Under the pieces are notes generated by a model that did not search any database, was not told the origin of the DNA, and was given only the letters and a program-made list of their open reading frames with translations. Of a DNA stretch of 64,000 bases, positions 7,670 through 64,000 are shown piece after piece. The position numbers were made by a program, and so were the translations under genes. The stretch lies in contig NIVC01001639.1 in assembly GCA_002269645.1 (NCBI GenBank), forward strand, positions 192,202-256,201. The letters run 5' to 3'. This stretch comes from Macrostomum lignano (Eukaryota). How positions within the stretch are numbered: position 1 is the first letter of the stretch; each line of letters opens with the position of its first letter.

Positions 7670-14623
<6,954 letters not shown>

Positions 14624-27655: not shown

Positions 27656-28987
27656 CAGGCACAGCAGCAAATGAACCAGCAGCGGTTGCAGCAGCAGCAG
27701 CAGCAGCGGCAGCCTCAATCTCAGTGAGCAGCAATCAGAGTTCTAGCTGAAAAAACACCCAGTTGAAAGGATGCAACGCTGATAAACGCACTCAATGCGA
27801 ACAGGAATGTTCAATAAAAAATCATAATCTACGTACTTATATGGCGCACAATATTCAGCCTATGAAATGCTTTTGCTTAACAAGACAGATGCATGCTGAT
27901 TAGCCGTATTAGAAATATCATTAGCTCTTTTTTCTACCCCAACAGACAAACTGTCATATTCATTTTCTGCGCTTTAGACTCATATAGAAAATGCTCTTTT
28001 ACGCTTTCCGTAGATTTGAACTCTGCCTACTTTAGAATTTAGCCAGCTGCCTTCATCTATACAATCGAATGGTTCAACATTACTGAGGAAGAGCGAACAA
28101 GCGCCGAGAATCTTTTGATATTTTTTATCGATATCTTTCACCAAGACGAGACTTCAGTTTAATTTCGATATCTAAAAATTCAAATATACCGTCAAAATCA
28201 AACAAATCAAAAATCATTCGAAAAGCTTATTAAATACAATATTTAAACATCGGTAGGCCTAGCTGTTATTTACTATTTTGGAGTTTTGACACAATTAAAA
28301 TGTACTTTTAAATAGTGTTGTTCAAAGTTTGCAGTTAGTCTATCCTTGTTGCCTCAAGTTACAGCGATCGTACACAGATTAATCCGATGCCCTACCAGGC
28401 GATGTAGTAGCCTGGTCGATCGAGACGAGACTGTCCTGCTGTACAACGCCGACACCTGTACAATAACACCTTTTCTCGACCAGCAGTCAACGCACTCACA
28501 CATGTATACAGGGTACAGTATATCCATAAGGGTCCTTGCTCGCCTGCATCAGGACGCGAGTGCTCACGTGCAGCTTGGGGCGTCAGGACGCTCCTATGTG
28601 AACTGATGCCCGCGTCAGGACGCCAAGACAAAGCTAGGCGCCAAGACGCTCAGGATTGCAAAAAATAAAACTCGCGTGATATGACTGCGTATCCTTAATT
28701 GGATAGGCTTAAGGACAAACGCGGACCTTTAGTTGTTCCCTTGACAACCAAAAAAAGACAGAGGAGCGCACTCTGCACTTTCTCTTGGCGGCAGGATCTG
28801 GCACGAGCAGACCGGTAAACGACTCTTTGTAGGCTTCATTTCTAATTCTTAGTTTACTAGTATTTTTCAGTAAATTTGCCACGCATTATGGCATGGATCT
28901 CGGTGGGTCAGTAGGAATAGGGAAGGCTACTAAAAAGCACTCCTAAGTGGAAGGCCCGGGGGAAATAGTCGGTGCCCCCGGGGGAAG

Positions 28988-46187: not shown

Positions 46188-46275
46188 CAAGGGTGTCGCC
46201 ACGTGGGGGGGGGATGGGGATCATGTCCCCCCCCCCCCCGTGAAAGTCAATATTTTGCTTCAGGGCGACAAATAT
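46188..46275. mobile_element. Left part of a small hAT-like MITE interrupted by the LTR element (right part 57955-58120)
   Basis: Left end CAAGGGTGTCGCCA; right end TGTGACGCCCCTG at ~58108-58120 (reverse complement CAGGGGCGTCACA). The flanks match at only 5 of 8 positions. Confidence 0.4.
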
Positions 46276-47139
46276 TGATGTGTTCCTTATTACCCGACTT
46301 TCGATAATCAAGGAACAATCACTTCTAGCTCAACAGCTAGGCAACCCAGTAAGTCAAACGAAGGTATTCAATTACCTTTAATCCGGATTTGAATTTCTTG
46401 AGTAGTTCTCGCTAGGAACTTGTCAGTAGATCTCGTAGATCAGGCGCCTTGATTCTTCAGTTGCTCTGGTCCTGGTTCCTCTTGTACTTCCGATAAGTTC
46501 TTCCGGCCGGTATCTTCCGTCAGGACCAATCAGAGGCCTCGTAGCAACAATGGGTACCCTGCGCCAAACTGCGGTCTAAATTAAGCCTCCTTCTTCTAGC
46601 AGTGCCTCTATGCACTCTAGGTATAGCTCCGGAAACCACTGATAGTCCTCTAAGATCTATCAGGGGCAGTCCTTCTGGAGACTGCAACCAATGGAGTCTA
46701 AACAGACTCAAGAGTCTCAACAGACTCAATTAGACTCAAGTCTCAATAGACTTGAGCGAGACGTCTCTAACACAACGGGCGCAAATAAGGAAGGCTTACC
46801 GCAACAACTCGACCGAGTCTCGATTGACTTGGTAGATCAGGAAGTCCTCCTAAGGCTTCCTCTTCGGAGCGCTCCTCTTCCGTGGGGAGAATGGCTCCGG
46901 TACCGCTTCAGATCGCTTGTATTTATAGACAAGTTTTTGATCCAAAATAGTATCATGACAATTCACGTGTTGCGCTAAAAGGGGAAAATGGCTCATGGCG
47001 TATTATTCTGGTAACATCTTTTTCTGGTAGCGTGATTCATTCAAAGCTTAGGCGCACATGCGTGTACTTACTTACTTATAGTAGTATTATACGATTATCT
47101 TCTTTTTTCCTTTTTTAACGGGAGGTAGAACACTCTACA
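46276..47139 (-). repeat. 3' LTR (864 bp)
   Basis: Direct repeat of 57087-57950; no differences seen by eye, and both copies give identical ORF-track translations. Confidence 0.97.
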
Positions 47140-47142
47140 AAA

Positions 47143-47154
47143 TCTCCCTTTTTT
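47143..47154 (-). other. Polypurine tract AAAAAAGGGAGA
   Basis: Purine run 3 nt upstream of the 3' LTR on the element strand. Confidence 0.85.
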
Positions 47155-47381
47155 ACGAAAAAACTCGTCCCGAGTTTTAACAATGAAATAAAAATCTTGG
47201 GTAATTGAATTATTCCATACTTTAACTTTAAATTGGTTACATAATTCTCTTTATTAACATATATGCACGTAATATACATTGTGTGTTAATAAAGGTTAGT
47301 GGTGTTGAGTCCACGCTCAGTTAAAGTTAATCATGTCTTCTGCCGGGGATACCTGCTGTCCTCGCGCTGCTGCCGAGGCAT

Positions 47382-48014
47382 TCAGCCGAAGCTTGTCCTG
47401 AGCAGGCTGCTCACCTGATGCGTGGTTCGCGCCACCAGGGATGCCACTGCCCAGTACAGCGACTGAAACTTAGTGAATCGCGGATCCTCGGTCCGCTCCA
47501 GCAAAAGCAGATAGGCCTCTATGGTCGTAAGCGGTTCTGCTGTACGCACCATAGTCCTGGCGATGTCTAGTAACCACCGCCAGTCGGCCTGATGCTGAAG
47601 CGGCCATGGCCACGTTCGTACGGCGACGGCCAGCTGTTCCAGGGTTAGCTCATCCGGCTCCGCCAGCGTTAGCTCCGGTACGGCGAGCATCGGTGCCAGT
47701 AGTACGGATGCTGTGTTGGACAGCGGAGCCAGGCACACGGTGCACGTCATGATGTCTCGTGCACCGTACCGCTGAAGACAGCTGAAACACACCCAATGCC
47801 GATTTGAACAGAGTCGTACATTGGGCTGGTCGCCGCAAAGGGCACATTGGACCCGCGGTCTGCGACAGACGGGGCAGGCGGTAAGGATCGTCACGTCGCC
47901 AATTTCTCGCGCCCGCTCGTCGCAGGGGAAGCACACCTGGTGCCCCCATTCACAAGTCGGGAGCATCGGCTCCCGTGCCTCGAGGCAGCAGGGGCAGGTA
48001 TCCATCTCGGTCAT
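47382..48014 (-). CDS. Accessory double-RING protein B, 210 aa
   Basis: CPCC..C.WGH..C..C..CPVC followed by CALC..C..RH..C..C..CTVC gives two tandem RING-like Cys/His arrays. The ATG is directly preceded by CCCACAG, a possible splice acceptor. Confidence 0.8.
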   Translation of the reverse strand: MTEMDTCPCCLEAREPMLPTCEWGHQVCFPCDERAREIGDVTILTACPVCRRPRVQCALCGDQPNVRLCSNRHWVCFSCLQRYGARDIMTCTVCLAPLSNTASVLLAPMLAVPELTLAEPDELTLEQLAVAVRTWPWPLQHQADWRWLLDIARTMVRTAEPLTTIEAYLLLLERTEDPRFTKFQSLYWAVASLVARTTHQVSSLLRTSFG

Positions 48015-48084
48015 CTGTGGGCGATAGGTATAGGTATAGTTAGAATGATTGAGGATTATTCAAGATACGTAACAAGCATATGTT

Positions 48085-48753
48085 CTATCGGTGAGACCTA
48101 AAAAGCCAAATAAAATAGCTACGTGAGAGCACTAATCGTTTAAGCGCGTGGCAGTATACGTGTAGCGTCCAGTGAAATGATTCGTGGTCATGCAAAAACT
48201 GCCGCAACCGTCGCTCAATCTCCAAGGGTGACATATGACGCAAAAATCCTTGATTTCTATGAGCATATAATAGTAGCTGTCGTCGCGACCGCTGAACGAA
48301 GCGAGGTACAGGCCAAAACTCCAGCCGCCGTTCGATACTCATAGCGGTTAAGGTGTGCATAGTGTAAACGGATAAACAACGCGCTGGGTCAGGTATAATC
48401 CGACACCATTTCTTAAAAGTGTTTTCGCGGGGCATACTGTTACATAAGGGGCATCCTATAATGCCCCTACTAGCGGTTTGCTTCAAACAGTGCATGCAAA
48501 TAAAATGTTGGTGGTTACAATATTGAAACGTGCGCCAAGAATAACAATAGGCACATTGTCGCAAACTATCTCTACAGAGGGGACAACTCTGCCAGGGCTG
48601 AATATAGTGTGAATCACTTAAACATTGTCCGCAAACTTTATGTCCATTGATGCAAATAGTCGGTGGCTTGACAGCCAAGTCATCAGTTAAACATATCGGG
48701 CAGTCATATAGCTGCTGAGGCTGGGGCGCCTGTTTTGACAGTGCGTTGCCCAT
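48085..48753 (-). CDS. Accessory double-RING protein A, 222 aa, with N-terminal myristoylation motif
   Basis: The first ATG (48753) gives MGNALSK; the ORF-track start at 48765 is a TTG. CPIC..C.NGH..C..C..CPLC then CAYC..C..QH..C..C..CPLC; same layout as protein B. Confidence 0.8.
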   Translation of the reverse strand: MGNALSKQAPQPQQLYDCPICLTDDLAVKPPTICINGHKVCGQCLSDSHYIQPWQSCPLCRDSLRQCAYCYSWRTFQYCNHQHFICMHCLKQTASRGIIGCPLCNSMPRENTFKKWCRIIPDPARCLSVYTMHTLTAMSIERRLEFWPVPRFVQRSRRQLLLYAHRNQGFLRHMSPLEIERRLRQFLHDHESFHWTLHVYCHALKRLVLSRSYFIWLFRSHR

Positions 48754-48873: not shown

Positions 48874-51800
48874 CTAGCGTGGTCGTAGGTTGTAGCCATG
48901 TGGCTGGCTCACATCTGTCGTTTGAGTCTCCTCGTGCTTCGTCGCGATGTGGCGGTTCGTTGAACGCGTGCGATCAGCGTTGTCTAATGTCGGTAGAAAC
49001 GTCGCTGTGTCAGTGTTGATCTTCTTTAGTCGATGAATGTGTACGTAGAACTGGTGCTGATGTGGATCTTGTACATTAGCCAGGCGTGCCGTTGTTGGTG
49101 ACGTTAGTTGGACCACTCGATAGGGTCCTTTGTACTTCTGTGCATGTTTATGCGTCTGCTGTGGCGGGTAGTGTAGGTAGACGATGTCGCCGGCCGTCAG
49201 GGTTGTCGATCTCGCGTCGTTGCCGGTGGTCAGAGCCACCTGGTTGTCAATGTTGTGCTTGGCGATCTTCCATGCGAGGTGTAGTTGCGTGACGAATTTC
49301 TGAATGGAAGTCGGTACTTCCACGTACTGCGATGGTAGCAATTGCTGTGCGAGCAGATTCGGCGGTTGGAAGTCTCGTCCAAACATTAGGAAGAATGGCG
49401 TATTGTCCGTTGATCGATGAATAGCGCTGTTGTAGGCCATTGTTACAGATTGCAGGTAGATGATCCAGTCTTCCGGCTGTTGGTGCGCGAAATGTGTAAT
49501 CATCTCGTGCAGGTTGCGGTGAAACCGTTCAACCATGTTTGCCTTCGGATTGTAGGTCGATGTGTAGATCTGCGTAATGTTGAGAATCCTTACGACTTGC
49601 TGAAACAGTTGCGATGTAAACTGCGATCCGTTGTCCGATGTGAGGTTCTTCGGCGTGCCGTACTTGCAAATGATTTCGTTGAAGAAACTCATTGCCACTG
49701 TCTGAGCTGTGATGTCCGGTATCGGTATGGCGATAGCAAACTTCGAGAAGATATCCAAGGCGGTTAGAATGTAGGTGTAGGCGATGCCCTGGAGACAGCT
49801 CGGTGGTAGCGGTCCGGTGATGTCGATGCTTAGACAGTCCATTGTAGTCGACTTCGGAATGGACTGTAGCTGCGGTTTCTGTCGTCGTCCTGTCTTTGAT
49901 GCAGCACATGAATGGCAGTTGTTGCAATACTGCTTGATGTCGCCGTACATAGTTGGCCAAAAGTAGTATTGTTCCACTCTCGCGATGGTCTTTGCTGCCG
50001 ACAGGTGTCCAGCGAGTGGGTTGTCGTGTAGCTCGTTGAGAATTGCTTGCCGAAACGAATATGGTATGTAGATCTTGGGTTTATTGTCGCTCATCCAGTA
50101 GAGCCGTGACTTATTGATTGTTAGGTGTTGTCGTTGCTTGCGTAGGAATTTTCGTTCCATGGGACTGAGTTTGATGTTCTTGTCGTCGTCTTTAACCGCT
50201 TGGTAGAAGTTGTCGCGCTCGGTTTCATCCACCAACTCCTTGATGTTAGGGATTGGATGAATGGCGTTGACTTCATAGGCTCTTGACAGGGCGTCCGCGG
50301 CTTTGTTGGTAATTCCTGGTTTGTAGACGAGTTTGTAGTTGTAATCCTGGATCTTGAGTGTCATTCTGATGAGTCGGTTGTTGGTCTGTCCTTTTGTAGT
50401 TACGACGTAGGTCAATGGTGCATGATCCGTGCGTACTATCGTCTGTATTGGAGAACCATAGATGTAGTAATGAAACTGTCGCAGGGCGAACAAGACTCCT
50501 AGTAGCTCTCGTTCCGTAGCTGACCACTTTGTTTCATTTGGTTTGAGTGCTCGACTGACGTAGGCAATAGGTCGTTCCTTCTTGTCCTCGGTTTCCTGTA
50601 GTAGGACTGCTCCGAGTCCCGTTCCTGAGGCGTCTGTCTCGATGATGAAGGGCTTGTCGAAGTCCGGATGCTGTAGCAGTGCGTCTGATGTCAGCTGTCG
50701 TTTGATTTCGTCGAAACTTTCCTGTTGTCTCTGTGTCCAGTTGTCTTGCTTCCATTTGTCGAACTTGAGCAGGTCGTACAGTGGCTTTGCTGTCTTTGCG
50801 AAGTTAGGTAAGAACTTCCTGAAGTATTGCGCAAGTCCAAGGAATGATTGGACCTTCGTTATACTGGTTGGCGTAGGAAACTTCTTCACCTTTTCCACGT
50901 TGTCTGGGTCCGGTGAGATTCCTTTGGCTGTCACCTGATGTCCCAGGTAACGCACGTTGTCTCGGAAGAATTTGCATTTAGTTGGTTGTAGCTTCAGACC
51001 TTGGCGTTGAATGAGCGCTAGGGCCTTCTCCGTAGCTTCGTAGAGTCGCTCGAAATCCTCTCCGTAGGCTAAAATGTCGTCGACATAGTGCAGCAGGTTC
51101 GTGCATCCTGCTAGCATGTATGCTGTTAGTCGACTCATCGTTGCTGGGCTGTTGCTAAGTCCCATCGGCGATCGATTGTACTCGTATACTTGTCCATTGT
51201 AGGTTTTGAAAGCCGTGTACTGTCGTGACTCTTTCTCGATTTCAATTTGCCAAAATCCATGACGTAGGTCGAACACCGTGAACAATTTTGCCGTGTTGAG
51301 CTTTGCTAGTAGTTCGGAGATCTTCGGTAGGCTTTGCTGATCCGTCGGTATGTACTTGTTCAACAGTCTGAAGTCGCATACGAGTCGTCTTTCGTTTGTC
51401 TCCTTCTTCTGTACCAGTAGGCACGGTGAGGAGTAAGCCGAAATAGCTTTGCTGATGATGCCGTGCTTTAGCATTTTATCGATGATTTCGTCAAAGTGTT
51501 GTTGCAGATGCTTGGCGATCGGGTACGGCTTGCACTGAATTGGTTCCGTGTGCGGCAGAAGTTTGATTTCCTGTTTGATGTCCTTGGCTCGTCCGATGTC
51601 GTAATCATGATGGCAGAAGGCTTCGTTGTACTTCCACAACAGCTGTCGAACTTTCCTCTTTTGCTGTTCCGTAATCGGGCTGTCATCCAAATTGATCTTC
51701 TTTTGAAATTCTTCCTCTGTTAGTCGTGGAGTCGCTTGTTCAATCAGCATAACCGATGCTTGGGTGTTGAGATGACCGATGCACATTCCTTGTCGTAGAT

Positions 51801-54800
51801 GAACCGTTTCTGTGTTCGGGTTGAAGATTTGTACTGGCAGTTGCTTATCCTTTGCAACCAGCACTAGTGCCGTAGGCATCATGATTTGATGTTTTGCCGT
51901 GACTCTCCTGTGTGGATCAAATATCATTGCTTCATCTGCCGCGCTGGTCGTTTTCGCTCTGACCCAGCATGCGCTTTCAGGCTGGATAATGACATCTTGC
52001 TGCAGAGTTACTTTCGGTAGTACTCGAATCTGGTTGATCAGCGGTTGCTCCACCGTGTCGATCCTAAACGTTTGCTTGTTGAAGTCGAAGGTCAATGGTA
52101 GTTGAAGCTGCTTGAACGTGTCGATTCCAACGATGACGTCTTGGTTTGGTAGTCTGTCGATGATGTACGTCGGGACCGTCAGCTGTTTATTAGCAATTTT
52201 CAAGTCGATATCTGCTTTTCCTAGGATGTTGAGTGAATGTCCTCCTGCTCCTGCAACTGCGATTGCTGCTGGTCGTACCGCGAGTCGTAGCTTGTTGCAT
52301 AATTGTTGCGAGATGACTGTGATCGAGCTGCCTGAATCCAGTAGTGCTCGACATGGCAAGTTGTTGACAATGACCTGAGCCATTGCTTTGCCAATCTCGG
52401 CGTGTAGCGTACAGACGTAGTTTTCCGGCCATTTTGGCTCGTGCTGTTCTGCTTGATAGTTGGGTGGTTGTATCCTTGGTGCCGTTGGTGTTGTCGGAAT
52501 CGATGGATATAGCCGCGTTGCTAGTGTCGGTTGCCCTTGAACCTCACAATGTGCAGTTTCTGTTAGTTCTAAACTGTTGTCGCTTTCCGTTGTCGTTCTT
52601 TGCATTATGGCATTCACTGTCTTCTTAGCTCTTGGACAAGTTTGACTGAAGCACCGTACGATCGATGAAATGATGAAGATTGCCGTGACAATCCACACAA
52701 TGCAAGCACCGTAGAAGATGAATCCTTGATAGAGACTGCCTCTTCCATTGAGCAGCTCCCAGAAGCTATTTGTCCAAAATGATTTGATGGCGCTGTCCAT
52801 TGAAACAAGGACGGGAAATCTTCCTGTCCCGGTTCCTTTGTCCTTTCTTGTGAACAGCTGGTGAATCATCTTGCGTTGGGTGATGAACGCTTGCAAGAAG
52901 TCGTTGATCGTCCATCCTGGTGTTATCTCGTCAAGTTGGATATCGGCGAATGGCGTATACTTCGTTCTGTTGAATCGGATTTTCAAATCCTCCATGTCGT
53001 AGTTTTCGTCGACGATTACTTCCGGTTCTGTGACGTTTGCTGTCGTTCCAGTTGTTTTGATGACGTGTAGTGCATTGTCCAGTTGATAGTAGTTTACTGC
53101 CGTGGTGCAAGGTCTCGGTATTGCGGTGCCAACGATGATGTTGTGTACCGTGTCCAAGAATCCCTGAATTCGTTTTCCTTCGTAGAACGCTTCAATCCTT
53201 GGCTTATCGTAGCAGGTTGTTGACGTGTTTGACGGCAAGATGTTAAAGTGCTGTATCGGCGTGCACTTGTATATCAACAGATGCTCGTATATTGGAACTG
53301 CCAAAACGTTCGTCATTCCGGTGATTTTACGAAAAGTCATCGTAGGGTTGACATAGTAGTTTTGTCTGGCATAATTTAAGTTGATTGCGTGCATTTTGCA
53401 AGTTAGCTGGACCAGTGTTCGATGCAAGTGGTTTAACTGGTTGTGTAGATTGTGATCCAAAGCCGTTATCTTTGCTGACAACAGCCGGTTTGACACCAGT
53501 TTGGGACGTTCGATGTCACGTCGTCTTCTATTCTGTTTTTCTTGTTGCTGATACGTTCCATTGATGATTGCCAAGAAGGTTTGTTTGTCTTCATCCTTTA
53601 CGTAGACTGGTATCTCTTGTTCCGAGATGAATAGTGTCTTGTCTGTATCCTTGCATTTCAGTTTTTGCTCGACTGGTTTCTTTTGAAACGTCAGTGCCAA
53701 GTCTCCTGACTTTGCCAAAAACGTATTTGACAGTAGTCCTCCTTCAACTGTGTGATACTTTTGAAGCTTGCAGTCAATTTCCGGCTCAACTTCCCACGCG
53801 AAGAAGTATTGTCGTGATTTGTACGGTTCCTCATAGTGTGATTGTGCTCTGTGCTCAATCTGCCATCGATAGTCTTGATGATATGTTGGACTCAGTGGTA
53901 GACTGTGTAGTTCTTCCTTCCGTAGAATCGGCGTTGGACACCATCCTTCACTGTATCGACATTCGCTTAGTTGCAGCTGTAACGATTCCATTTTCTCGTA
54001 CGGATTGTAGTAGAATGGAATATTTCTGATCAAGTAGCTGTTGCGTGCCATATATTCTTTCCATTTTCCGAAGAAGTGAATATATCGACCGTTGGCTGAA
54101 TTCTTTGTTCTGAACAGCTGTGCGTTGCCGACCTTCTCATCTGGTTCCAGTTCACCATCCTTTGAAAATAGTGTTTGATTCCATTGTAGGCATTCCGCGT
54201 GCGACACATGTAGCTCATGTTGTTTAAATCGGATCCGGTTCCATTGTCCGCGCCAAACTTTTTCCACCAGGTGCTTGTCTCTGAAGCATACTATCCCGTG
54301 TTGTCGATGCTTCTTGATGTTAGCCTTGTAGAGATCGAGTGTAATCTTCTTTGGTTTTGTCTGGTTTGTCTTGAAGTAACTGCATTTGATGTCGGTTGGT
54401 ATCTTGTAGATCATCGGTTGGATATGCGCATCCGTTGGACAAATCATTGGCTTTTCCGTTGCCGTTGCTTTGGCGACTACTGCTATCAGTAGTATCACGA
54501 TGATCCAGAATAGCCAGTTTTTCCACTTCTTGGATTTTGCCGTTGTCCTTGCTGGCATTGGCTGCGATCGCCATTCGTTATCTTCCATGTCCGCATCATA
54601 TTCTTTCGGTTGTTCCATTGGCTGATCCAGGCGGAAGGCTTCTGATTCGCTTTGCTTTTTGGTTATTTCATTATCTTCGTCTGCGGCTTCTTCCGATGTT
54701 TCCGTTGTTTCACTCCATTGCGTTTGGTATCTTTTCTCTGTCTTGTAGTCGACCGTTTGAATATAGGCTTCACCATTTCGTTTGTATCGGATCTCGTAGC

Positions 54801-56370
54801 ATTCGTCGCTGTCGGAACTCGGCTTTTCTTTCACCTGTTCTTTTTCCATTTCTTCATCTTTCCATTGTATTTCGTAGCCTTGATCGCTGTCGGAACTTAG
54901 ATTCTCCGCTCTCGGTTCTTCCTGCATTCCTCTTTCGGCTTGGTAGTCGTTCGTGTCATCACGCACCTCGCAGTCGTGGTCGTTGCCGTAACTTCTACAT
55001 TCTTCTTCTTCTTTCATTTCTTTGTCTTTCATGCTCGTTTTGTCGTCATCCACTGTTGTCGATTCATAGTTGTTTTCTTCGCCGGTTTTCATCTTTTCTT
55101 CGTTGCCGATGTCGCTCTCCGCCTCCTCCCTTGTCTTGTGATTTACTTTCTTCCTGTTTTCTCTGCTGTCTCCGGTGGTCTCTTTTAATTTGATCATTTC
55201 GGTTTCATTCGTCTCTTCTGTGTTGTCAGTGTTGTCCTCGTGCGTCGTCTTCTTTTCGATCAAGCTGATGTCAAGTTCCGGGACTGTGAAGTCCATTTCC
55301 AAGTCGTCAATTGTGAACACTTGCTGTTCTTGCTGTTCATTTTCCGGTGTGTACGTGATGGCATTCGCGTATCGTGGCATTGCTTGCGTCGGCTGTCTTT
55401 GTGTGTATCTGACGTTGCGTGGCCTGTAGCCATTACTTCTGAAGCGGCCTTCGTTTCCGAAGCGGCCATCATTTCCGGAGCGGTCATTATTTCCGAAGCG
55501 TCTATCATTTCCGAAGCGTCTCATTCCTTGTTGTTGGCGATTTTGATAGTGCTGCCATGGTTTCTGCGGCTTCTGATTGTTGAATATCTGTCGCGGCTTG
55601 TCGTATCTTGTTGACCAATGAGGACAATTAATCTGATAATGTCCTTCTTGTCCGCAGTAGTAACATCTGGCTGAGGCTTGTTCATTTCGTCTTTTTTGTT
55701 CGGCGATAGCAGCTGTCTGGTGCTGCATTAACTTGTTTAGTTGCTGCGTCAGTTTCTGCACTTCATTGTTGCCTGTCGTCATTAATGGGGCACTGGCTTC
55801 CCATTGCATTCCGCAACGCAAAAGGTCTTCTTCGGTTTCGATATTTTCACGCAAAAGTCTATCCCGAAGTGACGGCTGTGCGTTGTTTATTACGTGCAGG
55901 ATGAGGTTTTGTTCACGATCCATCAATCGTTGTCTTTCTCTGGCGGCCAATTCTGCCGCTCCCAGTGGTGGTTGGTCCGCAGCTTGCAGCGGTGGCTGAT
56001 GCAGTGCCTTAATTATCTGGCGGATATCGTCCACAAAGGCGAGGAAGGATTCTGTTGCTTGCATCCTTCTGTTATGCAACTTGTGCAGCAGCACTGATCT
56101 GTTTGTGCCGCAACGGTTGAAATGCGCGCGCAGTTGAATGATTAGTGCTGGATAATTTTGCTGTGTTGCCGCATCCAGCTTGCCGTAAATTTCTCGCGCA
56201 GTACCTTGGAGAAGAGGTGGCAGCAGCTGTGCCTTCTCTGGATTTTGTAGGTTGTATTCCCTACATACCAGGTCAAAATGGTCGACAAATGTGTTAAAAT
56301 CTTTCTCCATCGAGAAAGTACCGACCGTTTCTTTGATGTCTCTGTGTACCGTTGGATTGCGCCGCGCCAT
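48874..56370 (-). CDS. Gag-Env-Pol polyprotein, 2498 aa
   Basis: Gag with CCHC knuckle CYYCGQEGHYQINC (55624-55665); hydrophobic signal WLFWIIVILLIAVVAKATA (~54461-54517); Cys-rich ectodomain with N-glycosylation sequons and furin-like RRRR (53518-53529); TM segment (~52660-52725); protease LLDSGS (~52327-52344); RT YVDD (51076-51087); RNase H TDASGTGLGAVL; integrase HHCC, DDE and GPY motifs. Confidence 0.95.
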   Translation of the reverse strand: MARRNPTVHRDIKETVGTFSMEKDFNTFVDHFDLVCREYNLQNPEKAQLLPPLLQGTAREIYGKLDAATQQNYPALIIQLRAHFNRCGTNRSVLLHKLHNRRMQATESFLAFVDDIRQIIKALHQPPLQAADQPPLGAAELAARERQRLMDREQNLILHVINNAQPSLRDRLLRENIETEEDLLRCGMQWEASAPLMTTGNNEVQKLTQQLNKLMQHQTAAIAEQKRRNEQASARCYYCGQEGHYQINCPHWSTRYDKPRQIFNNQKPQKPWQHYQNRQQQGMRRFGNDRRFGNNDRSGNDGRFGNEGRFRSNGYRPRNVRYTQRQPTQAMPRYANAITYTPENEQQEQQVFTIDDLEMDFTVPELDISLIEKKTTHEDNTDNTEETNETEMIKLKETTGDSRENRKKVNHKTREEAESDIGNEEKMKTGEENNYESTTVDDDKTSMKDKEMKEEEECRSYGNDHDCEVRDDTNDYQAERGMQEEPRAENLSSDSDQGYEIQWKDEEMEKEQVKEKPSSDSDECYEIRYKRNGEAYIQTVDYKTEKRYQTQWSETTETSEEAADEDNEITKKQSESEAFRLDQPMEQPKEYDADMEDNEWRSQPMPARTTAKSKKWKNWLFWIIVILLIAVVAKATATEKPMICPTDAHIQPMIYKIPTDIKCSYFKTNQTKPKKITLDLYKANIKKHRQHGIVCFRDKHLVEKVWRGQWNRIRFKQHELHVSHAECLQWNQTLFSKDGELEPDEKVGNAQLFRTKNSANGRYIHFFGKWKEYMARNSYLIRNIPFYYNPYEKMESLQLQLSECRYSEGWCPTPILRKEELHSLPLSPTYHQDYRWQIEHRAQSHYEEPYKSRQYFFAWEVEPEIDCKLQKYHTVEGGLLSNTFLAKSGDLALTFQKKPVEQKLKCKDTDKTLFISEQEIPVYVKDEDKQTFLAIINGTYQQQEKQNRRRRDIERPKLVSNRLLSAKITALDHNLHNQLNHLHRTLVQLTCKMHAINLNYARQNYYVNPTMTFRKITGMTNVLAVPIYEHLLIYKCTPIQHFNILPSNTSTTCYDKPRIEAFYEGKRIQGFLDTVHNIIVGTAIPRPCTTAVNYYQLDNALHVIKTTGTTANVTEPEVIVDENYDMEDLKIRFNRTKYTPFADIQLDEITPGWTINDFLQAFITQRKMIHQLFTRKDKGTGTGRFPVLVSMDSAIKSFWTNSFWELLNGRGSLYQGFIFYGACIVWIVTAIFIISSIVRCFSQTCPRAKKTVNAIMQRTTTESDNSLELTETAHCEVQGQPTLATRLYPSIPTTPTAPRIQPPNYQAEQHEPKWPENYVCTLHAEIGKAMAQVIVNNLPCRALLDSGSSITVISQQLCNKLRLAVRPAAIAVAGAGGHSLNILGKADIDLKIANKQLTVPTYIIDRLPNQDVIVGIDTFKQLQLPLTFDFNKQTFRIDTVEQPLINQIRVLPKVTLQQDVIIQPESACWVRAKTTSAADEAMIFDPHRRVTAKHQIMMPTALVLVAKDKQLPVQIFNPNTETVHLRQGMCIGHLNTQASVMLIEQATPRLTEEEFQKKINLDDSPITEQQKRKVRQLLWKYNEAFCHHDYDIGRAKDIKQEIKLLPHTEPIQCKPYPIAKHLQQHFDEIIDKMLKHGIISKAISAYSSPCLLVQKKETNERRLVCDFRLLNKYIPTDQQSLPKISELLAKLNTAKLFTVFDLRHGFWQIEIEKESRQYTAFKTYNGQVYEYNRSPMGLSNSPATMSRLTAYMLAGCTNLLHYVDDILAYGEDFERLYEATEKALALIQRQGLKLQPTKCKFFRDNVRYLGHQVTAKGISPDPDNVEKVKKFPTPTSITKVQSFLGLAQYFRKFLPNFAKTAKPLYDLLKFDKWKQDNWTQRQQESFDEIKRQLTSDALLQHPDFDKPFIIETDASGTGLGAVLLQETEDKKERPIAYVSRALKPNETKWSATERELLGVLFALRQFHYYIYGSPIQTIVRTDHAPLTYVVTTKGQTNNRLIRMTLKIQDYNYKLVYKPGITNKAADALSRAYEVNAIHPIPNIKELVDETERDNFYQAVKDDDKNIKLSPMERKFLRKQRQHLTINKSRLYWMSDNKPKIYIPYSFRQAILNELHDNPLAGHLSAAKTIARVEQYYFWPTMYGDIKQYCNNCHSCAASKTGRRQKPQLQSIPKSTTMDCLSIDITGPLPPSCLQGIAYTYILTALDIFSKFAIAIPIPDITAQTVAMSFFNEIICKYGTPKNLTSDNGSQFTSQLFQQVVRILNITQIYTSTYNPKANMVERFHRNLHEMITHFAHQQPEDWIIYLQSVTMAYNSAIHRSTDNTPFFLMFGRDFQPPNLLAQQLLPSQYVEVPTSIQKFVTQLHLAWKIAKHNIDNQVALTTGNDARSTTLTAGDIVYLHYPPQQTHKHAQKYKGPYRVVQLTSPTTARLANVQDPHQHQFYVHIHRLKKINTDTATFLPTLDNADRTRSTNRHIATKHEETQTTDVSQPHGYNLRPR

Positions 56371-57066
56371 GTTGTTGATAGGGTAGAACGGTAGTTCAAG
56401 ATCTGGATCGATTTGTAACGGATCGTCCAGTGTGGTGTTTGCCTCGGAATAAACCTCGACTGTAACGAATTGCCTTGTGGTGTCGATTTGTTATTCGCTG
56501 GCCTCGGATGCGGTGTGGCTTGCTGCCACTGGTTGTCCTCAAATGAACTTGTTCTGTTCGCTTGCTGATTTCGCACTTATGCGGCGTCCCGCAAAGTGTA
56601 TCTTCAAGTTGAAGTGGACTTGTCTTCTTGCTTTGCAAAGTCTTTCTTCTCTTCTTTGACTCTCTCTCTTTTGTCAATTAACTCTGCTCTCCACGAAGTT
56701 TCAATTAATTTCGGTTTTGTTTTAGTTTTTGTGCCGGCAAAATGTTTCAGTTATTTTTTGTTTGTTTTGCGTCGACGATTCTTTTTATTTTTGGTTTGTT
56801 TTCAGTGTACCGACGAAGTTAATTTCGGTTTTGTTTTAAACTCACACTTGCTCGAGCTCGTCAAAACAAAATTTTAACACGCGTGCTCAAACTGTACTCA
56901 AATTTGACAGGTGCTCAAACCTGTACACCAAATTTTACTCGAGTTTCAAAACGTAACGGACTTAAAAAGTGTTAACTCTAACACGTGCGCGCAAAATTAA
57001 TGAAGTCGCTCTGTCGTCACTTTACAATAGCTTGGCCAGGCTATTGCTCAAGGTTTGAGTAGTGCC

Positions 57067-57084
57067 GAGAGGGCGAGATCACCA
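57067..57084 (-). other. Primer-binding site TGGTGATCTCGCCCTCTC (tRNA-Trp-like by its TGGTGA start; assignment tentative)
   Basis: TGG begins 2 nt after the 5' LTR on the element strand. Confidence 0.75.
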
Positions 57085-57086
57085 AT

Positions 57087-57950
57087 TGATGTGTTCCTTA
57101 TTACCCGACTTTCGATAATCAAGGAACAATCACTTCTAGCTCAACAGCTAGGCAACCCAGTAAGTCAAACGAAGGTATTCAATTACCTTTAATCCGGATT
57201 TGAATTTCTTGAGTAGTTCTCGCTAGGAACTTGTCAGTAGATCTCGTAGATCAGGCGCCTTGATTCTTCAGTTGCTCTGGTCCTGGTTCCTCTTGTACTT
57301 CCGATAAGTTCTTCCGGCCGGTATCTTCCGTCAGGACCAATCAGAGGCCTCGTAGCAACAATGGGTACCCTGCGCCAAACTGCGGTCTAAATTAAGCCTC
57401 CTTCTTCTAGCAGTGCCTCTATGCACTCTAGGTATAGCTCCGGAAACCACTGATAGTCCTCTAAGATCTATCAGGGGCAGTCCTTCTGGAGACTGCAACC
57501 AATGGAGTCTAAACAGACTCAAGAGTCTCAACAGACTCAATTAGACTCAAGTCTCAATAGACTTGAGCGAGACGTCTCTAACACAACGGGCGCAAATAAG
57601 GAAGGCTTACCGCAACAACTCGACCGAGTCTCGATTGACTTGGTAGATCAGGAAGTCCTCCTAAGGCTTCCTCTTCGGAGCGCTCCTCTTCCGTGGGGAG
57701 AATGGCTCCGGTACCGCTTCAGATCGCTTGTATTTATAGACAAGTTTTTGATCCAAAATAGTATCATGACAATTCACGTGTTGCGCTAAAAGGGGAAAAT
57801 GGCTCATGGCGTATTATTCTGGTAACATCTTTTTCTGGTAGCGTGATTCATTCAAAGCTTAGGCGCACATGCGTGTACTTACTTACTTATAGTAGTATTA
57901 TACGATTATCTTCTTTTTTCCTTTTTTAACGGGAGGTAGAACACTCTACA
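57087..57950 (-). repeat. 5' LTR (864 bp)
   Basis: Reads TGTAGAGTG...CACATCA on the element strand; repeat of 46276-47139. Confidence 0.97.
57732..57738 (-). promoter_or_regulatory. Candidate LTR TATA box (TATAAAT)
   Basis: Motif ~210 nt into the 5' LTR on the element strand; positional plausibility only. Confidence 0.4.
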
Positions 57951-58696
57951 ATATATAGCGCCTGCGGCACCAAACACGAGTTCCTGCAGCGCAAAAAATG
58001 CCTGCGACGCCAAATGAGCGCTGACAACACCGATTCTAAAAATAATGTAAAATGTTAAAATGTATAATTCTTGCGGCTTAATTTGTTCCCCACCATAAAA
58101 TCAATCTTGTGACGCCCCTGCCACAACAGTACATGTAACTCACAAACCTTCTGTCGTAAATGCACATGCAAGTCGTATATAGCCAGTAGAAGTGACTAAA
58201 AAGAGAATCAAAGTTGTAGATGGGGTTGGTACATGTTTGTTAGCCCGACAAACGACGAGAGTGTAGGCCTGAAGCCATAACCATGCCTAGACTCATTCGT
58301 CTTTTTCTCTTTTGATTTCCATTTACCTTAAGATATTGAGTTTAAATACTTTTAGTATTTTTAACATTAATTTACTTGCACTTCTTATTCATACAGCGAA
58401 AATATTTTTACTTCCTTTTAAATATTAGTTGACGTATGCTCCGGTATCTGAGGCTTACTCTATGTTTCAAGTAAATAATTGTCGTAAAACACGAAAATGT
58501 TCATGTATTACTACCACATTAAAGACAGTGTTGCCTAGCCAATCAACAGCCGCCATGCAAAACACGCTACGAATTTCAACTTAAATGCGTCAACCGAAAG
58601 AAATCTAGATATTTCTTTACCAATTCCCCTCCTCGTATTTTGCGCTAGTGTGTTGTCCTGTTAAAACTATATTTTGATTGAAATTCTTACGTTAAT

Positions 58697-60469
58697 ATGT
58701 GGCTGTCGAGCTTTTTGGCATTTGCTCTGCTTGCTCTCGCATGCGGTGAAGTTTACTTCAAGGAGGAGTTTTTAGATGGTAAGTTAGTTCTCGCTCTGAC
58801 GTTTATTTTGTTTAGATTCTCAAATTCCCTTGTGTTGCTGCAATACTAGAATAGGGCATTGTCTTGTTGGTTTTCTTCATTTCAACCATATCAGAATATT
58901 AAAGTAACTAAAAATAGTATTGAAATCATTCCATTCTTTTTAACTTTGCACATTCAAGCAGTTAAAATAACCCCCTTGTGTTAGCTTTGCATTTTGTTCT
59001 AAAAGAATAAACTGTGGTTACTGGTTTACTTTTTTATAGTTTTTGAAAGATAATTCATTAAAAAGGCTTCTATTATTGAGTATGAGAGAGAAAGGAAGTA
59101 TAGGTTTCTAGCTAGCTACTTTAATTTAATTGTAACATATTATAAGATTGTTTTATAACTTCACAATTTTTTTGTTTCCTTAAAGACTATTTGTATATAT
59201 ATATATTGCCTATCTTTACATTTTTCTATGTTTCTCCTAATGTAAAATCCTTTGATTTAAATATTTATTTTTTTCTTTTAATTTTAATTATATGCTTTGC
59301 TAATTTGTCTTCACAAAATATTTATTTCAGAGTCATGGAAGGATCGGTGGGTAGAGTCAACCTACAAGGGTAATGACCAAGGCAAATGGGAATGGACTGC
59401 TGGCAAGTTCTACAATGATGCTGAAAAGGACAAGGGAATAAAAACCTCCCAGGATGCCAAATTTTATGGCATCAGTGCCAAGTTCAACTCTCCATTCTCC
59501 AATGCTGGCAAGACTCTGGTGATCCAATTCCAGGTCAAGCATGAGCAGAACATTGACTGCGGTGGTGGCTATGTCAAAGTCCTTGGCAGCGATGTTGACC
59601 AGAAGAACTTCCACGGCGACACACCCTACAAGATCATGTTTGGTCCTGATATCTGCGGCCCTGGCACTAAGAAGGTGCACGTTATCTTCAACTACAAGGG
59701 CAAGAATTTGCTCACCAAGAAGGAGATTCGCTGCAAGGATGACGAGCTAAGCCACCTGTACACCCTGATTGTGAAGCCTGACAACACCTACGAGGTGCTG
59801 ATTGACAACGAGCGAGCCGAAGGTGGAGAACTCGAGGCCGACTGGGACTTCCTGCCACCCAAGAAGATCAAGGATCCGGCCGCCAAGAAGCCAGACGACT
59901 GGGACGAGCGCGAGAAAATTGACGACCCGAACGACAAGAAGCCGGAGGACTGGGACAAGCCCAAGACCATCCCGGATCCCAAGGCCAAGAAGCCGGACGA
60001 CTGGGACGACGAGATGGACGGCGAATGGGAGCCGCCGATGATTGACAACCCGGACTACAAGGGCGACTGGAAGCCCAAGCAGATTGACAACCCGGCCTAC
60101 AAGGGCAAGTGGATCCACCCGGAGATTGACAACCCGGACTACTCGCCGGACCCCGAGCTGTACAAGTACACCGACATCGGCGCCATCGGCTTCGACCTGT
60201 GGCAGGTGAAATCTGGCTCCATCTTCGACAACGTCTTCGTTGGCGACGACCCGGCCGAGGCCAAGGCCTTCGCCGACGAGACCTTCAAGAAGACCGTCGA
60301 AGGCGAGAAGAAGATGAAGGAGAAGCAGGACGAGGAGGACAAGAAGAAGGCGGAGGAAGAGGAGAAGAAGCGCAAAGAGGAGGAGGAGAAGAAGAAGGCC
60401 GAGGAGGGCGACAAGAAGGAAGCGGACAAGAAGGAGGACGACAAGAAGGACACCAAGGACGAGCTGTAG
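58697..60469 (+). CDS. CALR: Calreticulin, 406 aa; exons 58697-58778 and 59331-60469
   Basis: Signal peptide MWLSSFLAFALLALACG, then EVYFKEEF. Motifs KHEQNIDCGGGYVK and IMFGPDICG; P-domain repeats (KPDDWD, GEWEPPMIDNPDYKG); acidic tail ending KDEL; phase-1 GT-AG intron. Confidence 0.97.
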
Positions 60470-62469: not shown

Positions 62470-64000
62470 TACAGGTGTATGTTTGATTCCCATGCAGATA
62501 TTTTGTTTACCCTGCAGATATCTGTTTGATTCCGCTGCAGATTAGCTGTTTGATTCCGCTGAGATAGCTGTTTGATTCCCCTACAGATATCTGTTTGATT
62601 CCCCTTACAGATATCTGTTTGATTCCCTTACAGATATCTGCTTGATTCCCCTACAGATATCTGCTTGATTCCGCTGCAGATATCTGCTTGATTCCCCTAC
62701 AGATATCTGTTTGATTCCCTCAGATATCTGTTTGATTCCCTACAGATATCTGTTTGATTCCCTACAGATATCTGTTTGATTCCCTACAGATATCTGTTTG
62801 ATTCCGCTGCAGATATCTGCTTGATTCCCTACAGATATCTGTTTGATTCCCCTACAGATATCTGCTTGATTCCGCTGCAGATATCTGTTTGATTCCCCTA
62901 CAGATATCTGCTTGATTCCGCTGCAGATATCTGTTTGATTCCCCTACAGATATCTGTTTGATTCCGCTGCAGATATCTGTTTGATTCCCTTACAGATATC
63001 TGCTTGATTCCGCTGCAGATATCTGTTTGATTCCCCTACAGATATCTGTTTGATATCTCTACAGATATCTGTTTGATTCCCTACAGATATCTGCTTGATT
63101 CCCTACAGATATCTGTTTGATTCCGCTGCAGATATCTGTTGATTCCCTACAGATATCTGTTTGATTCCCCTTACAGATATCTGCTGATTCCGCTGCAGAT
63201 ATCTGCTTGATTCCCCTACAGATATCTGCTTGATTCCCGCTACAGATATCTGTTGATTCCCTACAGATATCTGTTTGATTCCGCTGCAGATATCTGTTTG
63301 ATTCCCCTTACAGATATCTGCTTGATTCCCTACAGATATCTGTTTTGATTCCCCTACAGATATCTGCTTGATTCCCCTACAGATATCTGTTTGATTCCCT
63401 ACAGATATCTGTTTGATTCCCCTACAGATATCTCTCTGTTTGATTCCCCTACAGATATCTGTTTGATTCCCCTACAGATATCTGTTTGATTCCCCTACAG
63501 ATATCTGTTTGATTCCCCTACAGATATCTGTTTGATTCCCCTACAGATATCTGTTTGATTCCCCTACAGATATCTGTTTGATTCCCCTACAGATATCTGT
63601 TTGATTCCCCTACAGATATCTGTTTGATTCCCCTACAGATATCTGTTTGATTCCCCTACAGATATCTGTTTGATTCCCCTACAGATATCTGTTTGATTCC
63701 CTACAGATATCTGTTTGATTCCCCTACAGATATCTGTTTTGATTCCCCTACAGATATCTGTTTGATTCCCCTACAGATATCTGTTTGATTCCCCTACAGA
63801 TATCTGTTTGATTCCCCTACAGATATCTGTTTGATTCCCCTACAGATATCTGTTTGATTCCCCTACAGATATCTGTTTGATTCCCCTACAGATATCTGTT
63901 TGATTTCCCCTACAGATATCTGTTTGATTCCCCTACAGATATCTGTTTGATTCCCCTACAGATATCTGTTTGATTCCCTACAGATATCTGTTTGATTCCC
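62470..64000. repeat. ~24-bp satellite (CAGATATCTGTTTGATTCCCCTA)n running off the window end
   Basis: Tandem units with the palindromic core CAGATATCTG. Confidence 0.95.

Follow-up and report, generated by a model that had tools for sequence, protein, structure and literature searches.

A predicted glycoprotein B-type class III fusogen encoded between gag and protease in a Ty3/Gypsy element of Macrostomum lignano

Results

The sequence considered here is a 64,000-nucleotide stretch of the flatworm Macrostomum lignano (GenBank assembly GCA_002269645.1, contig NIVC01001639.1, positions 192,202 to 256,201, forward strand), referred to below as the window. On its minus strand lies a full, intact Ty3/Gypsy long terminal repeat (LTR) element of 11,675 bp, which includes an env region at 52660-54517. 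It is highly probable that this region is the env of a recently expanded Ty3/Gypsy GAG-ENV-POL errantivirus of the herpes simplex virus (HSV)/glycoprotein B (gB) type, very probably the published family Mlig_errantivirus_2. The parts of the element are as follows, in window coordinates with strand; ORF denotes an open reading frame, RT reverse transcriptase and IN integrase.

57951-57954 (right) and 46272..46275 (left), no strand: target-site duplication ATAT
57087..57950, minus: 5' LTR, 864 bp, TG...CA ends, matching the 3' LTR at every position
57071..57084, minus: primer-binding site (PBS), 14 nt complementary to the 3' end of tRNA-Val(AAC), CCA added
48874..56490, minus: gag-env-pro-RT-RNaseH-IN single continuous ORF, 2538 codons between stops, or 2498 aa counted from the ATG at 56370
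55624..56370, minus: Gag, with a presumed capsid (from position) followed by a CCHC zinc knuckle (zf-CCHC PF00098, above cut-off)
54469..54525, minus: internal hydrophobic segment of Env (hydropathy scan), putative signal or signal-anchor
52741..54465, minus: Env ectodomain, predicted gB-type class III fold, 12 conserved Cys, 6 N-glycosylation sequons
52642..52734, minus: Env C-terminal transmembrane anchor (hydropathy scan)
52108..52377, minus: aspartic protease (LLDSGS; Pfam)
50932..51411, minus: reverse transcriptase core (YVDD; RVT_1, E 3e-28)
50341..50739, minus: RNase H region (Pfam RT_RNaseH and RT_RNaseH_2)
49546..50067, minus: integrase zinc-binding and core domains (Pfam)
48085..48753, minus: accessory ORF 1, RING-finger-like, 222 aa (zf-RING_2, E 2e-4, below cut-off), intact in the sister family
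47382..48017, minus: accessory ORF 2, RING-finger-like, 211 aa (Sina_RING, E 3e-4, below cut-off), a paralogue of ORF 1
47143..47154, minus: polypurine tract (PPT), just before the 3' LTR
46276..47139, minus: 3' LTR, 864 bp

Pfam placed the CCHC knuckle before env and the protease, RT, RNase H and integrase after it, so that the order is gag-env-pro-RT-RH-IN in one frame, with env located in frame between gag and protease and not downstream of integrase; the first-pass annotation of this DNA, which had proposed a Gypsy element carrying its env at an unusual position, was correct in this respect. Two LTRs, a PBS and a PPT flanking the internal region are hallmarks of the Metaviridae (PMC7879559), and all are present here together with the nucleocapsid knuckle of gag, the pol order PR-RT-RH-IN and the YVDD motif, while the Pfam scan of the element gave no match to Pao peptidase A17. 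However, the canonical ICTV Errantivirus encodes env downstream of integrase (PMC7879559). As env here lies between gag and protease, the element is not a canonical errantivirus, and is one only in the operational sense used in the text of Chary and Hayashi (eLife 2026; PMC13524379), where all elements were assigned to Ty3/gypsy by GyDB hidden Markov models. The traits of the HSV/gB-type GAG-ENV-POL class in that sense are all found in the window family, namely an uninterrupted gag-env-pol, LTRs, multiple near-identical copies, and a gB-like ectodomain with conserved cysteines between two hydrophobic segments. By the 14-nt pairing of the PBS, the primer is assigned to the host tRNA-Val(AAC), matching genes for which are present in genome G000 and were called by ARAGORN. 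An acidic low-complexity spacer of about 250 aa (window 54560-55300, minus) separates Gag from Env and is visibly unconserved in the sister family described below. Each LTR also holds a 110-codon stop-free frame antisense to the element (46646-46978 and 57457-57789, plus), which may be due to chance.

All motifs that the first-pass annotation had quoted for Env were recovered in the minus-strand frame of the ORF at 48874-56490. They are given below with other Env features; a single coordinate, or that in brackets, is the first base of the motif.

54450, minus: PMIC
54333, minus: LYKAN..GIVC
54241..54258, minus (54258): VWRGQW, candidate fusion loop 1, at the tip of a long beta hairpin, the turn between model strands 53-72 and 75-85
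54207, minus: VSHAEC
54061..54078, minus (54078): HFFGKW, candidate fusion loop 2, in the loop preceding model strand 136-153, not anchored to gB by alignment
53961, minus: CRYSEGWC
53796, minus: WEVEPEIDC
53518..53529, minus (53529): RRRR, furin-type polybasic site between the PH-like domain and the central helix
53350..53490, minus: long central helix of domain III type ending LTC...NPT, model helix 326-372, core of the gB and PF24664 matches
53406, minus: LTC
53349, minus: NPT
53274, minus: IYKC
53214, minus: CYDKP
53163, minus: GFLD

Conservation of these features was assessed in an alignment of 51 homologues at 18-56% identity, a set that leaves out most of the long polyproteins among the 71 relatives found by exhaustive search. 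Each of the 12 ectodomain cysteines shows little or no variation, from 33/33 to 45/45 of the homologues with a residue in the column (the lowest being 43/44 and 44/45), and W224 is conserved in 47/47; judged from the alignment, the motif pattern is more than chance. The polybasic site is also retained, with Arg at its first position in 35/42 homologues and at its last in 37/42. It is followed by DIERPKLVSNRLL, a polar and charged stretch and not a hydrophobic fusion peptide. The furin site of Epstein-Barr virus (EBV) gB occupies the corresponding position between domains II and III (PMC12859058).

On profile and modelling evidence, Env is assigned to the class III fusogens of the gB type, with gB as the closest solved member. 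When the family profile was searched against the PDB, 52 of the 52 matches at E<=10 were herpesvirus gB, the best being EBV gB at 1.1e-16. Among family members, the Pfam family Monjiviricetes_fusion (PF24664) matched 24/52 and Glycoprotein_B 4/52. The AlphaFold (AF2) model (pLDDT confidence score 80.1) displays long hairpins of beta strands, a helix of 47 residues that follows RRRR and, at the C-terminus, a domain rich in beta structure. Its predicted architecture is that of class III, with an elongated beta fusion domain inserted into a PH-like one, a long central helix and a beta-rich domain IV. In a Foldseek search of the PDB, gB made up every row among the matches listed (best E 1.4e-22), and the independent aligner VIA-align also placed gB first (Z 10.0-11.7); next, at Z 4.5-6.3, came the G proteins of Chandipura and rabies viruses, the GPs of Bourbon and Thogoto viruses and GP64, and PH domains scored 3.8-4.8. 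The earlier proposals that Env is a class III, gB-like fusogen, and that it is neither a retroviral Env nor a baculovirus F, were therefore both upheld: profile and structure matches were to gB, with no class I protein among the matches listed. The outcomes that had been named as refuting them (a class I or II fold, a cellular protein, or no fusogen similarity) did not arise, the profile, Foldseek and VIA-align searches all leading to gB.

Of the two aromatic loops proposed earlier as a bipartite fusion surface, the first is the better placed. Profile alignment puts the VWRGQW turn on the 'HR' of EBV gB constructs, in which HR substitutes the fusion-loop residues WY112-113 (PMC12859058, as described for those constructs), and macaque-virus gB aligns to the Env profile in one piece across this turn; the local stretch is weak when taken alone (independent E-value, i-E, 1.1). 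The loop 1 columns are F/F in 21/34 and 21/35 homologues. HFFGKW is a plausible and reasonable candidate for the second loop on the basis of its place in the model, at a site where homologues mostly read CC-x-W; the CC pair is present in 26/37 homologues, but not in the window Env.

Purifying selection acts on env. Against three diverged copies, dN/dS (nonsynonymous over synonymous rates, Nei-Gojobori) was 0.107, 0.083 and 0.079. Compared with the sister family, env keeps 62-64% of its residues while its synonymous sites have reached saturation (pS about 0.8, Nei-Gojobori). This conservation is about like that of protease (69%) and hence more than would be needed merely to keep the frame open.

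The element family is multi-copy and recently expanded. In genome G000, scoring 70 of 264 candidates gave 73 env matches; 12 of these share 100% identity over 634 aa, and 12 belong to open frames of at least 2370 codons. The LTR search of the same genome (40 matches scored of 653 candidates) yielded 11 same-contig pairs, of which 3 are spaced at 10,810-10,811, as in the long variant to which the window copy belongs (LTR offset 10,811), and 8 at 9,727-9,759, the short variant. Three of the four copies retrieved have about 140 other bases in place of window 47190-48388, a replacement that removes RING ORF 2 and truncates ORF 1; the same joint occurs in sequencing-run contigs. Target duplications are 4 bp in four of five copies and 5 bp in one, with no common sequence. 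A sister family (L016/L017, on contig C717 of G000) has an env 61-62% identical, is organised as one ORF in the same way and retains two intact RING ORFs, and a third M. lignano family (P0004) has an env identity of 26-28%. At least two further gag-env-pro-pol families thus occur in the same host, and the published table lists one M. lignano element (PMC13524379). Many copies of the element and of the RING ORFs, often diverged or broken, are clustered within tens of kb on contigs C2121, C1130, C87, C272 and C4009 of G000, which may be nested insertion sites or loci resembling Piwi-interacting RNA clusters. As regards expression, the element is covered by contigs from three sequencing runs presumed to be of RNA and from a fourth of unspecified type; among the 10 joints listed from these contigs none is a clear, shared splice for a separate env mRNA, but contigs show presence only and so are evidence neither for nor against such an mRNA.

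Both RING-like ORFs lie between integrase and the 3' LTR and are about 30% identical to each other, with 151 matches each in G000, many of them diverged. The pair is intact in the long variant (a minority of copies) and in the sister family, and replaced or truncated in the commoner short variant. In the Atlas look-alike resource, their resemblances are mostly to viral RING proteins (0.91, weak evidence). Myristoylation of ORF 1, considered from an N-terminal MG motif, was dropped, as the motif is absent in the sister family. The word 'RING' does not occur in the main text of PMC13524379, although its figure supplements and deposited sequences, which lay outside the comparison, could show such ORFs or the window env. 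Likewise, the passages of PMC12801592 that were covered do not deal with env or with RING ORFs on the LTR elements of M. lignano, and literature listings on RING ORFs in LTR retrotransposons and on the named M. lignano polyprotein held nothing directly relevant. Within this literature, the RING-like pair appears to be the main item for which no published description was found, and hence an addition.

Discussion

The kind of element described here is already known. Chary and Hayashi report that gB-type env is widespread on Ty3/gypsy elements, describe the GAG-ENV-POL order in nematode, bryozoan and flatworm elements, and link the glycoprotein to the Chuviridae-like genes of mosquito BEL/Pao elements (PMC13524379, as far as its main text and tables go). 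Supplement 1 of that paper lists Platyhelminthes_Rhabditophora_Mlig_errantivirus_2 as ENV_HSV, with 16 copies, an LTR of about 864 bp and an offset of 9727. This entry shares with the window family an identical 12-nt PBS, the LTR length, the ENV_HSV type, the gag-env-pol order and the multi-copy state, and its offset equals that of the short variant in G000. However, the window copy is longer (LTR offset 10,811) and has two intact RING-like ORFs, and its PBS, here assigned to tRNA-Val(AAC), is given as 'others' in the published entry. The window element is very probably of this family, and the family very probably already published; the present finding therefore mainly confirms that work, which takes precedence over it. 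The window env is not in the pairwise or structure tables of PMC13524379. A database protein labelled M. lignano (P0073) is 99% identical over 1488 aa to the env-pol half, by which the window family and the published entry share their host species.

Several observations weigh against this reading of the locus. Single-sequence phmmer of Env against the PDB returned five chance matches (E 0.5-0.9) and no gB. The only notable Pfam match of Env alone is PF24664 (24 bits, E 1e-5), which falls below the curated cut-off of 27, and Baculo_F matches one of the 52 family members weakly (E 2.8e-4). The whole-chain TM-score to gB is only 0.40-0.47, with a root-mean-square deviation of 12-17 A and a model pTM (predicted TM-score) of 0.60. 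In addition, a BEL/Pao polyprotein (P0063, with Peptidase_A17 and integrase) has a related env downstream of integrase, as seen by Pfam and missed by blastp, so that this type of env occurs in both superfamilies and outside the gag-env-pol layout too. Lastly, the comparison with Mlig_errantivirus_2 covered only the PBS, LTR length, spacing, env type and host, which makes identity very probable but short of proven.

The first-pass annotation had further proposed that env was captured from a negative-strand RNA virus of the Jingchuvirales, independently in this phylum. A capture in the flatworm lineage that was independent and fairly recent, whether from a chuvirus or a nyamivirus-like donor, would accord with the sole notable Pfam match being Monjiviricetes_fusion, which is also the top match for Env in the Atlas resource (0.90, below the recognition threshold and a lead only). 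It would also accord with a nyamivirus G being the best match among predicted viral structures (BFVD; E 5e-24), with the TM-scores of chuvirus models exceeding those of nyamivirus ones (0.34-0.40 vs 0.28-0.29), and with the report that GAG-ENV-POL elements are not monophyletic by POL (PMC13524379, main text). However, the BFVD ranking by E-value is mixed, with nyamivirus G at ranks 1, 4 and 7, herpesvirus gB at 3, 5 and 8 and entomopoxvirus proteins at 6 and 9 all preceding the first named chu-like entry at rank 23 (others at 24, 33 and 35), and identities are 9-14% throughout; the chuvirus TM-scores do not exceed those of solved gB, and neither E-value nor TM-score singles out one viral donor. 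The sequence relatives of Env are instead envs of other retroelements, including nematode ones, at 22-35% identity with two closer. Many of them resemble published bryozoan gB-type envs by eye, sharing motifs with these, and no match is identifiable as an RNA-virus protein, though most matches are unnamed. The named relatives are from M. lignano, Panagrolaimus and Globodera. By blastp, env is followed in the same protein by protease, RT or integrase in 23 of the 71 relatives, and preceded by them in none; word-indexed searches were insensitive, giving one and two matches. Given the mixed viral ranking at such low identity and the retroelement nature of the relatives, inheritance from an old lineage of gB-type retroelement envs is better supported than fresh chuvirus capture; the specific Jingchuvirales origin is not borne out, and independent capture is very unlikely. 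The uncharacterised entomopoxvirus proteins (ranks 6, 9, 34 and 49) match the gB-type fold strongly in their own right (best E 1.7e-21).

It is exceedingly improbable that Env is instead a captured cellular protein or a class I fusogen like retroviral Env or baculovirus F. Class I proteins typically have a furin-type site such as RRRR ahead of a long helix, the weak Baculo_F match points the same way, and the PH domains in the VIA-align results could suggest a cellular origin. However, PH-like domains form part of the class III fold, no class I protein was among the matches listed from the profile-PDB, Foldseek-PDB, BFVD or VIA-align searches, and the stretch DIERPKLVSNRLL offers no hydrophobic fusion peptide after RRRR, on which ground class I is rejected. 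An alternate scenario retains the gB fold but not its role in infection: the element would copy itself intracellularly, with Env acting as a membrane tether or kept open only through its in-frame position. That position alone would select against stops and frameshifts, and loop 2 of the window Env is without the CC pair seen in most homologues. However, a frame constraint does not account for a dN/dS of about 0.09 or for 12 invariant cysteines. The sister family shows no evident conservation of the acidic spacer, which belongs to the same ORF, and aromatic loop 1 is kept, as are the polybasic site and the anchor; this scenario is considered unlikely. Possible, but put forward only tentatively, is that the lineage is actively infectious and enveloped, with capsid, stand-alone gB-type fusogen and enzymes supplied by one membrane-spanning polyprotein, together with a fast-evolving RING-like pair undescribed in the literature searched. 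As part of that proposal, the RING-like pair may possibly act as E3 ligases against host defence.

The anatomy of the element, together with what is established about gB and about the membrane polyproteins of viruses, allows a model of how Env might function. A single polyprotein would be made, of which Gag would remain cytosolic while the internal hydrophobic segment threads the ectodomain into the endoplasmic reticulum (ER), where it may be glycosylated and Env freed from Gag, signal peptidase being a guess. The C-terminal anchor would then stop transfer, so that protease, RT and integrase are again cytosolic and the polyprotein crosses the ER membrane twice; the portion comprising these enzymes could be freed by the element protease. 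Env would trimerise, and furin may cut at RRRR, with no fusion peptide exposed by the cut. Both gB and VSV (vesicular stomatitis virus) G fuse membranes by loop insertion and refolding, and by analogy Env may coat budding particles and fuse membranes through insertion of its two aromatic loops and refolding around the central helix. Drosophila gypsy moves from soma to germline, and by the same kind of analogy the likely purpose would be to move the element between worm cells, for example from soma to germline or stem cells. The env itself would have been inherited within the old lineage of gB-type retroelement envs.

Comparison with known systems places the element among several retroelements and viruses with related glycoproteins. 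Two of the Env relatives (P0022 and P0053) are nematode polyproteins with env before pol, as in the non-canonical endogenous retroviruses (ERVs) of nematodes, but these belong to another phylum and their envs are only 25-30% identical, over local stretches. Sacco et al. (2022, J Gen Virol) are said to have described a nematode metavirus with env before pol, the title attributing it to capture of an RNA-virus glycoprotein, and these ERVs reportedly have one continuous gag-env-pro-pol ORF with a nyamivirus-like env. Herpesvirus gB (EBV, Kaposi's sarcoma-associated herpesvirus, HSV, cytomegalovirus) is the best solved-structure match by three methods and shares the C...NPT helix end, the domain IV cysteines, the position of loop 1 and the furin site between domains II and III; however, identity is 10-14%, domain I is shorter in the window Env, and gB requires gH/gL, for which the window element has no partner gene. 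The G proteins of the Monjiviricetes (Nyamiviridae, Chuviridae) belong to the same class III family, PF24664, with structural matches at E 1e-15 to 1e-24, but no specific affinity of the window Env to chuviruses was seen. The mosquito 'Anakin' elements are BEL/Pao, unlike the window Gypsy element (PMC7642597; PMC10084718), and in the portion of PMC10084718 considered, Gypsy elements showed no clear case of a captured chuvirus G; a later study found such glycoprotein genes on 114 arthropod gypsy elements (PMC13524379). Tas (Ascaris) and Atlas (hookworm) are belpaoviruses, likewise retroelements with non-retroviral fusogens; Atlas encodes a single polyprotein, as here, and the Tas env weakly resembles gB. 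They differ in being BEL/Pao and not Gypsy, Atlas having the order Gag-Pol-Env with a class II fusogen (PMC9094657, in the sections compared).

To the published work the present analysis adds a structure model of env, a selection estimate, the assignment of a tRNA-Val primer, sister families in the same genome and the RING-like pair. The occurrence of gB-type fusogens on Gypsy elements across animals bears both on the origins of class III fusogens and on the infectivity of retrotransposons, and the entry mechanism of gB-type Gypsy elements is stated to be unknown in PMC13524379. If the lineage were indeed infectious, it would serve as a model of fusion by a gB-type protein that has no gH/gL, and of a metavirus with virus-like accessory genes, in a regenerating flatworm that is tractable for transgenesis.

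Surrounding sequence

A host calreticulin gene lies beside the element on the plus strand (window 58697-60469), with its main coding exon at 59288-60469 (Pfam E 1.5e-85) and a KDEL end. As the element is inserted about 0.7 kb upstream of the apparent first calreticulin exon, its LTR could affect the calreticulin promoter. Many tandem-repeat arrays with 8- to 36-bp units occupy window 1400-37100 and 62500-64000, and a glutamine-rich array of CAG type at about 25000-27700 yields a 919-codon open frame.

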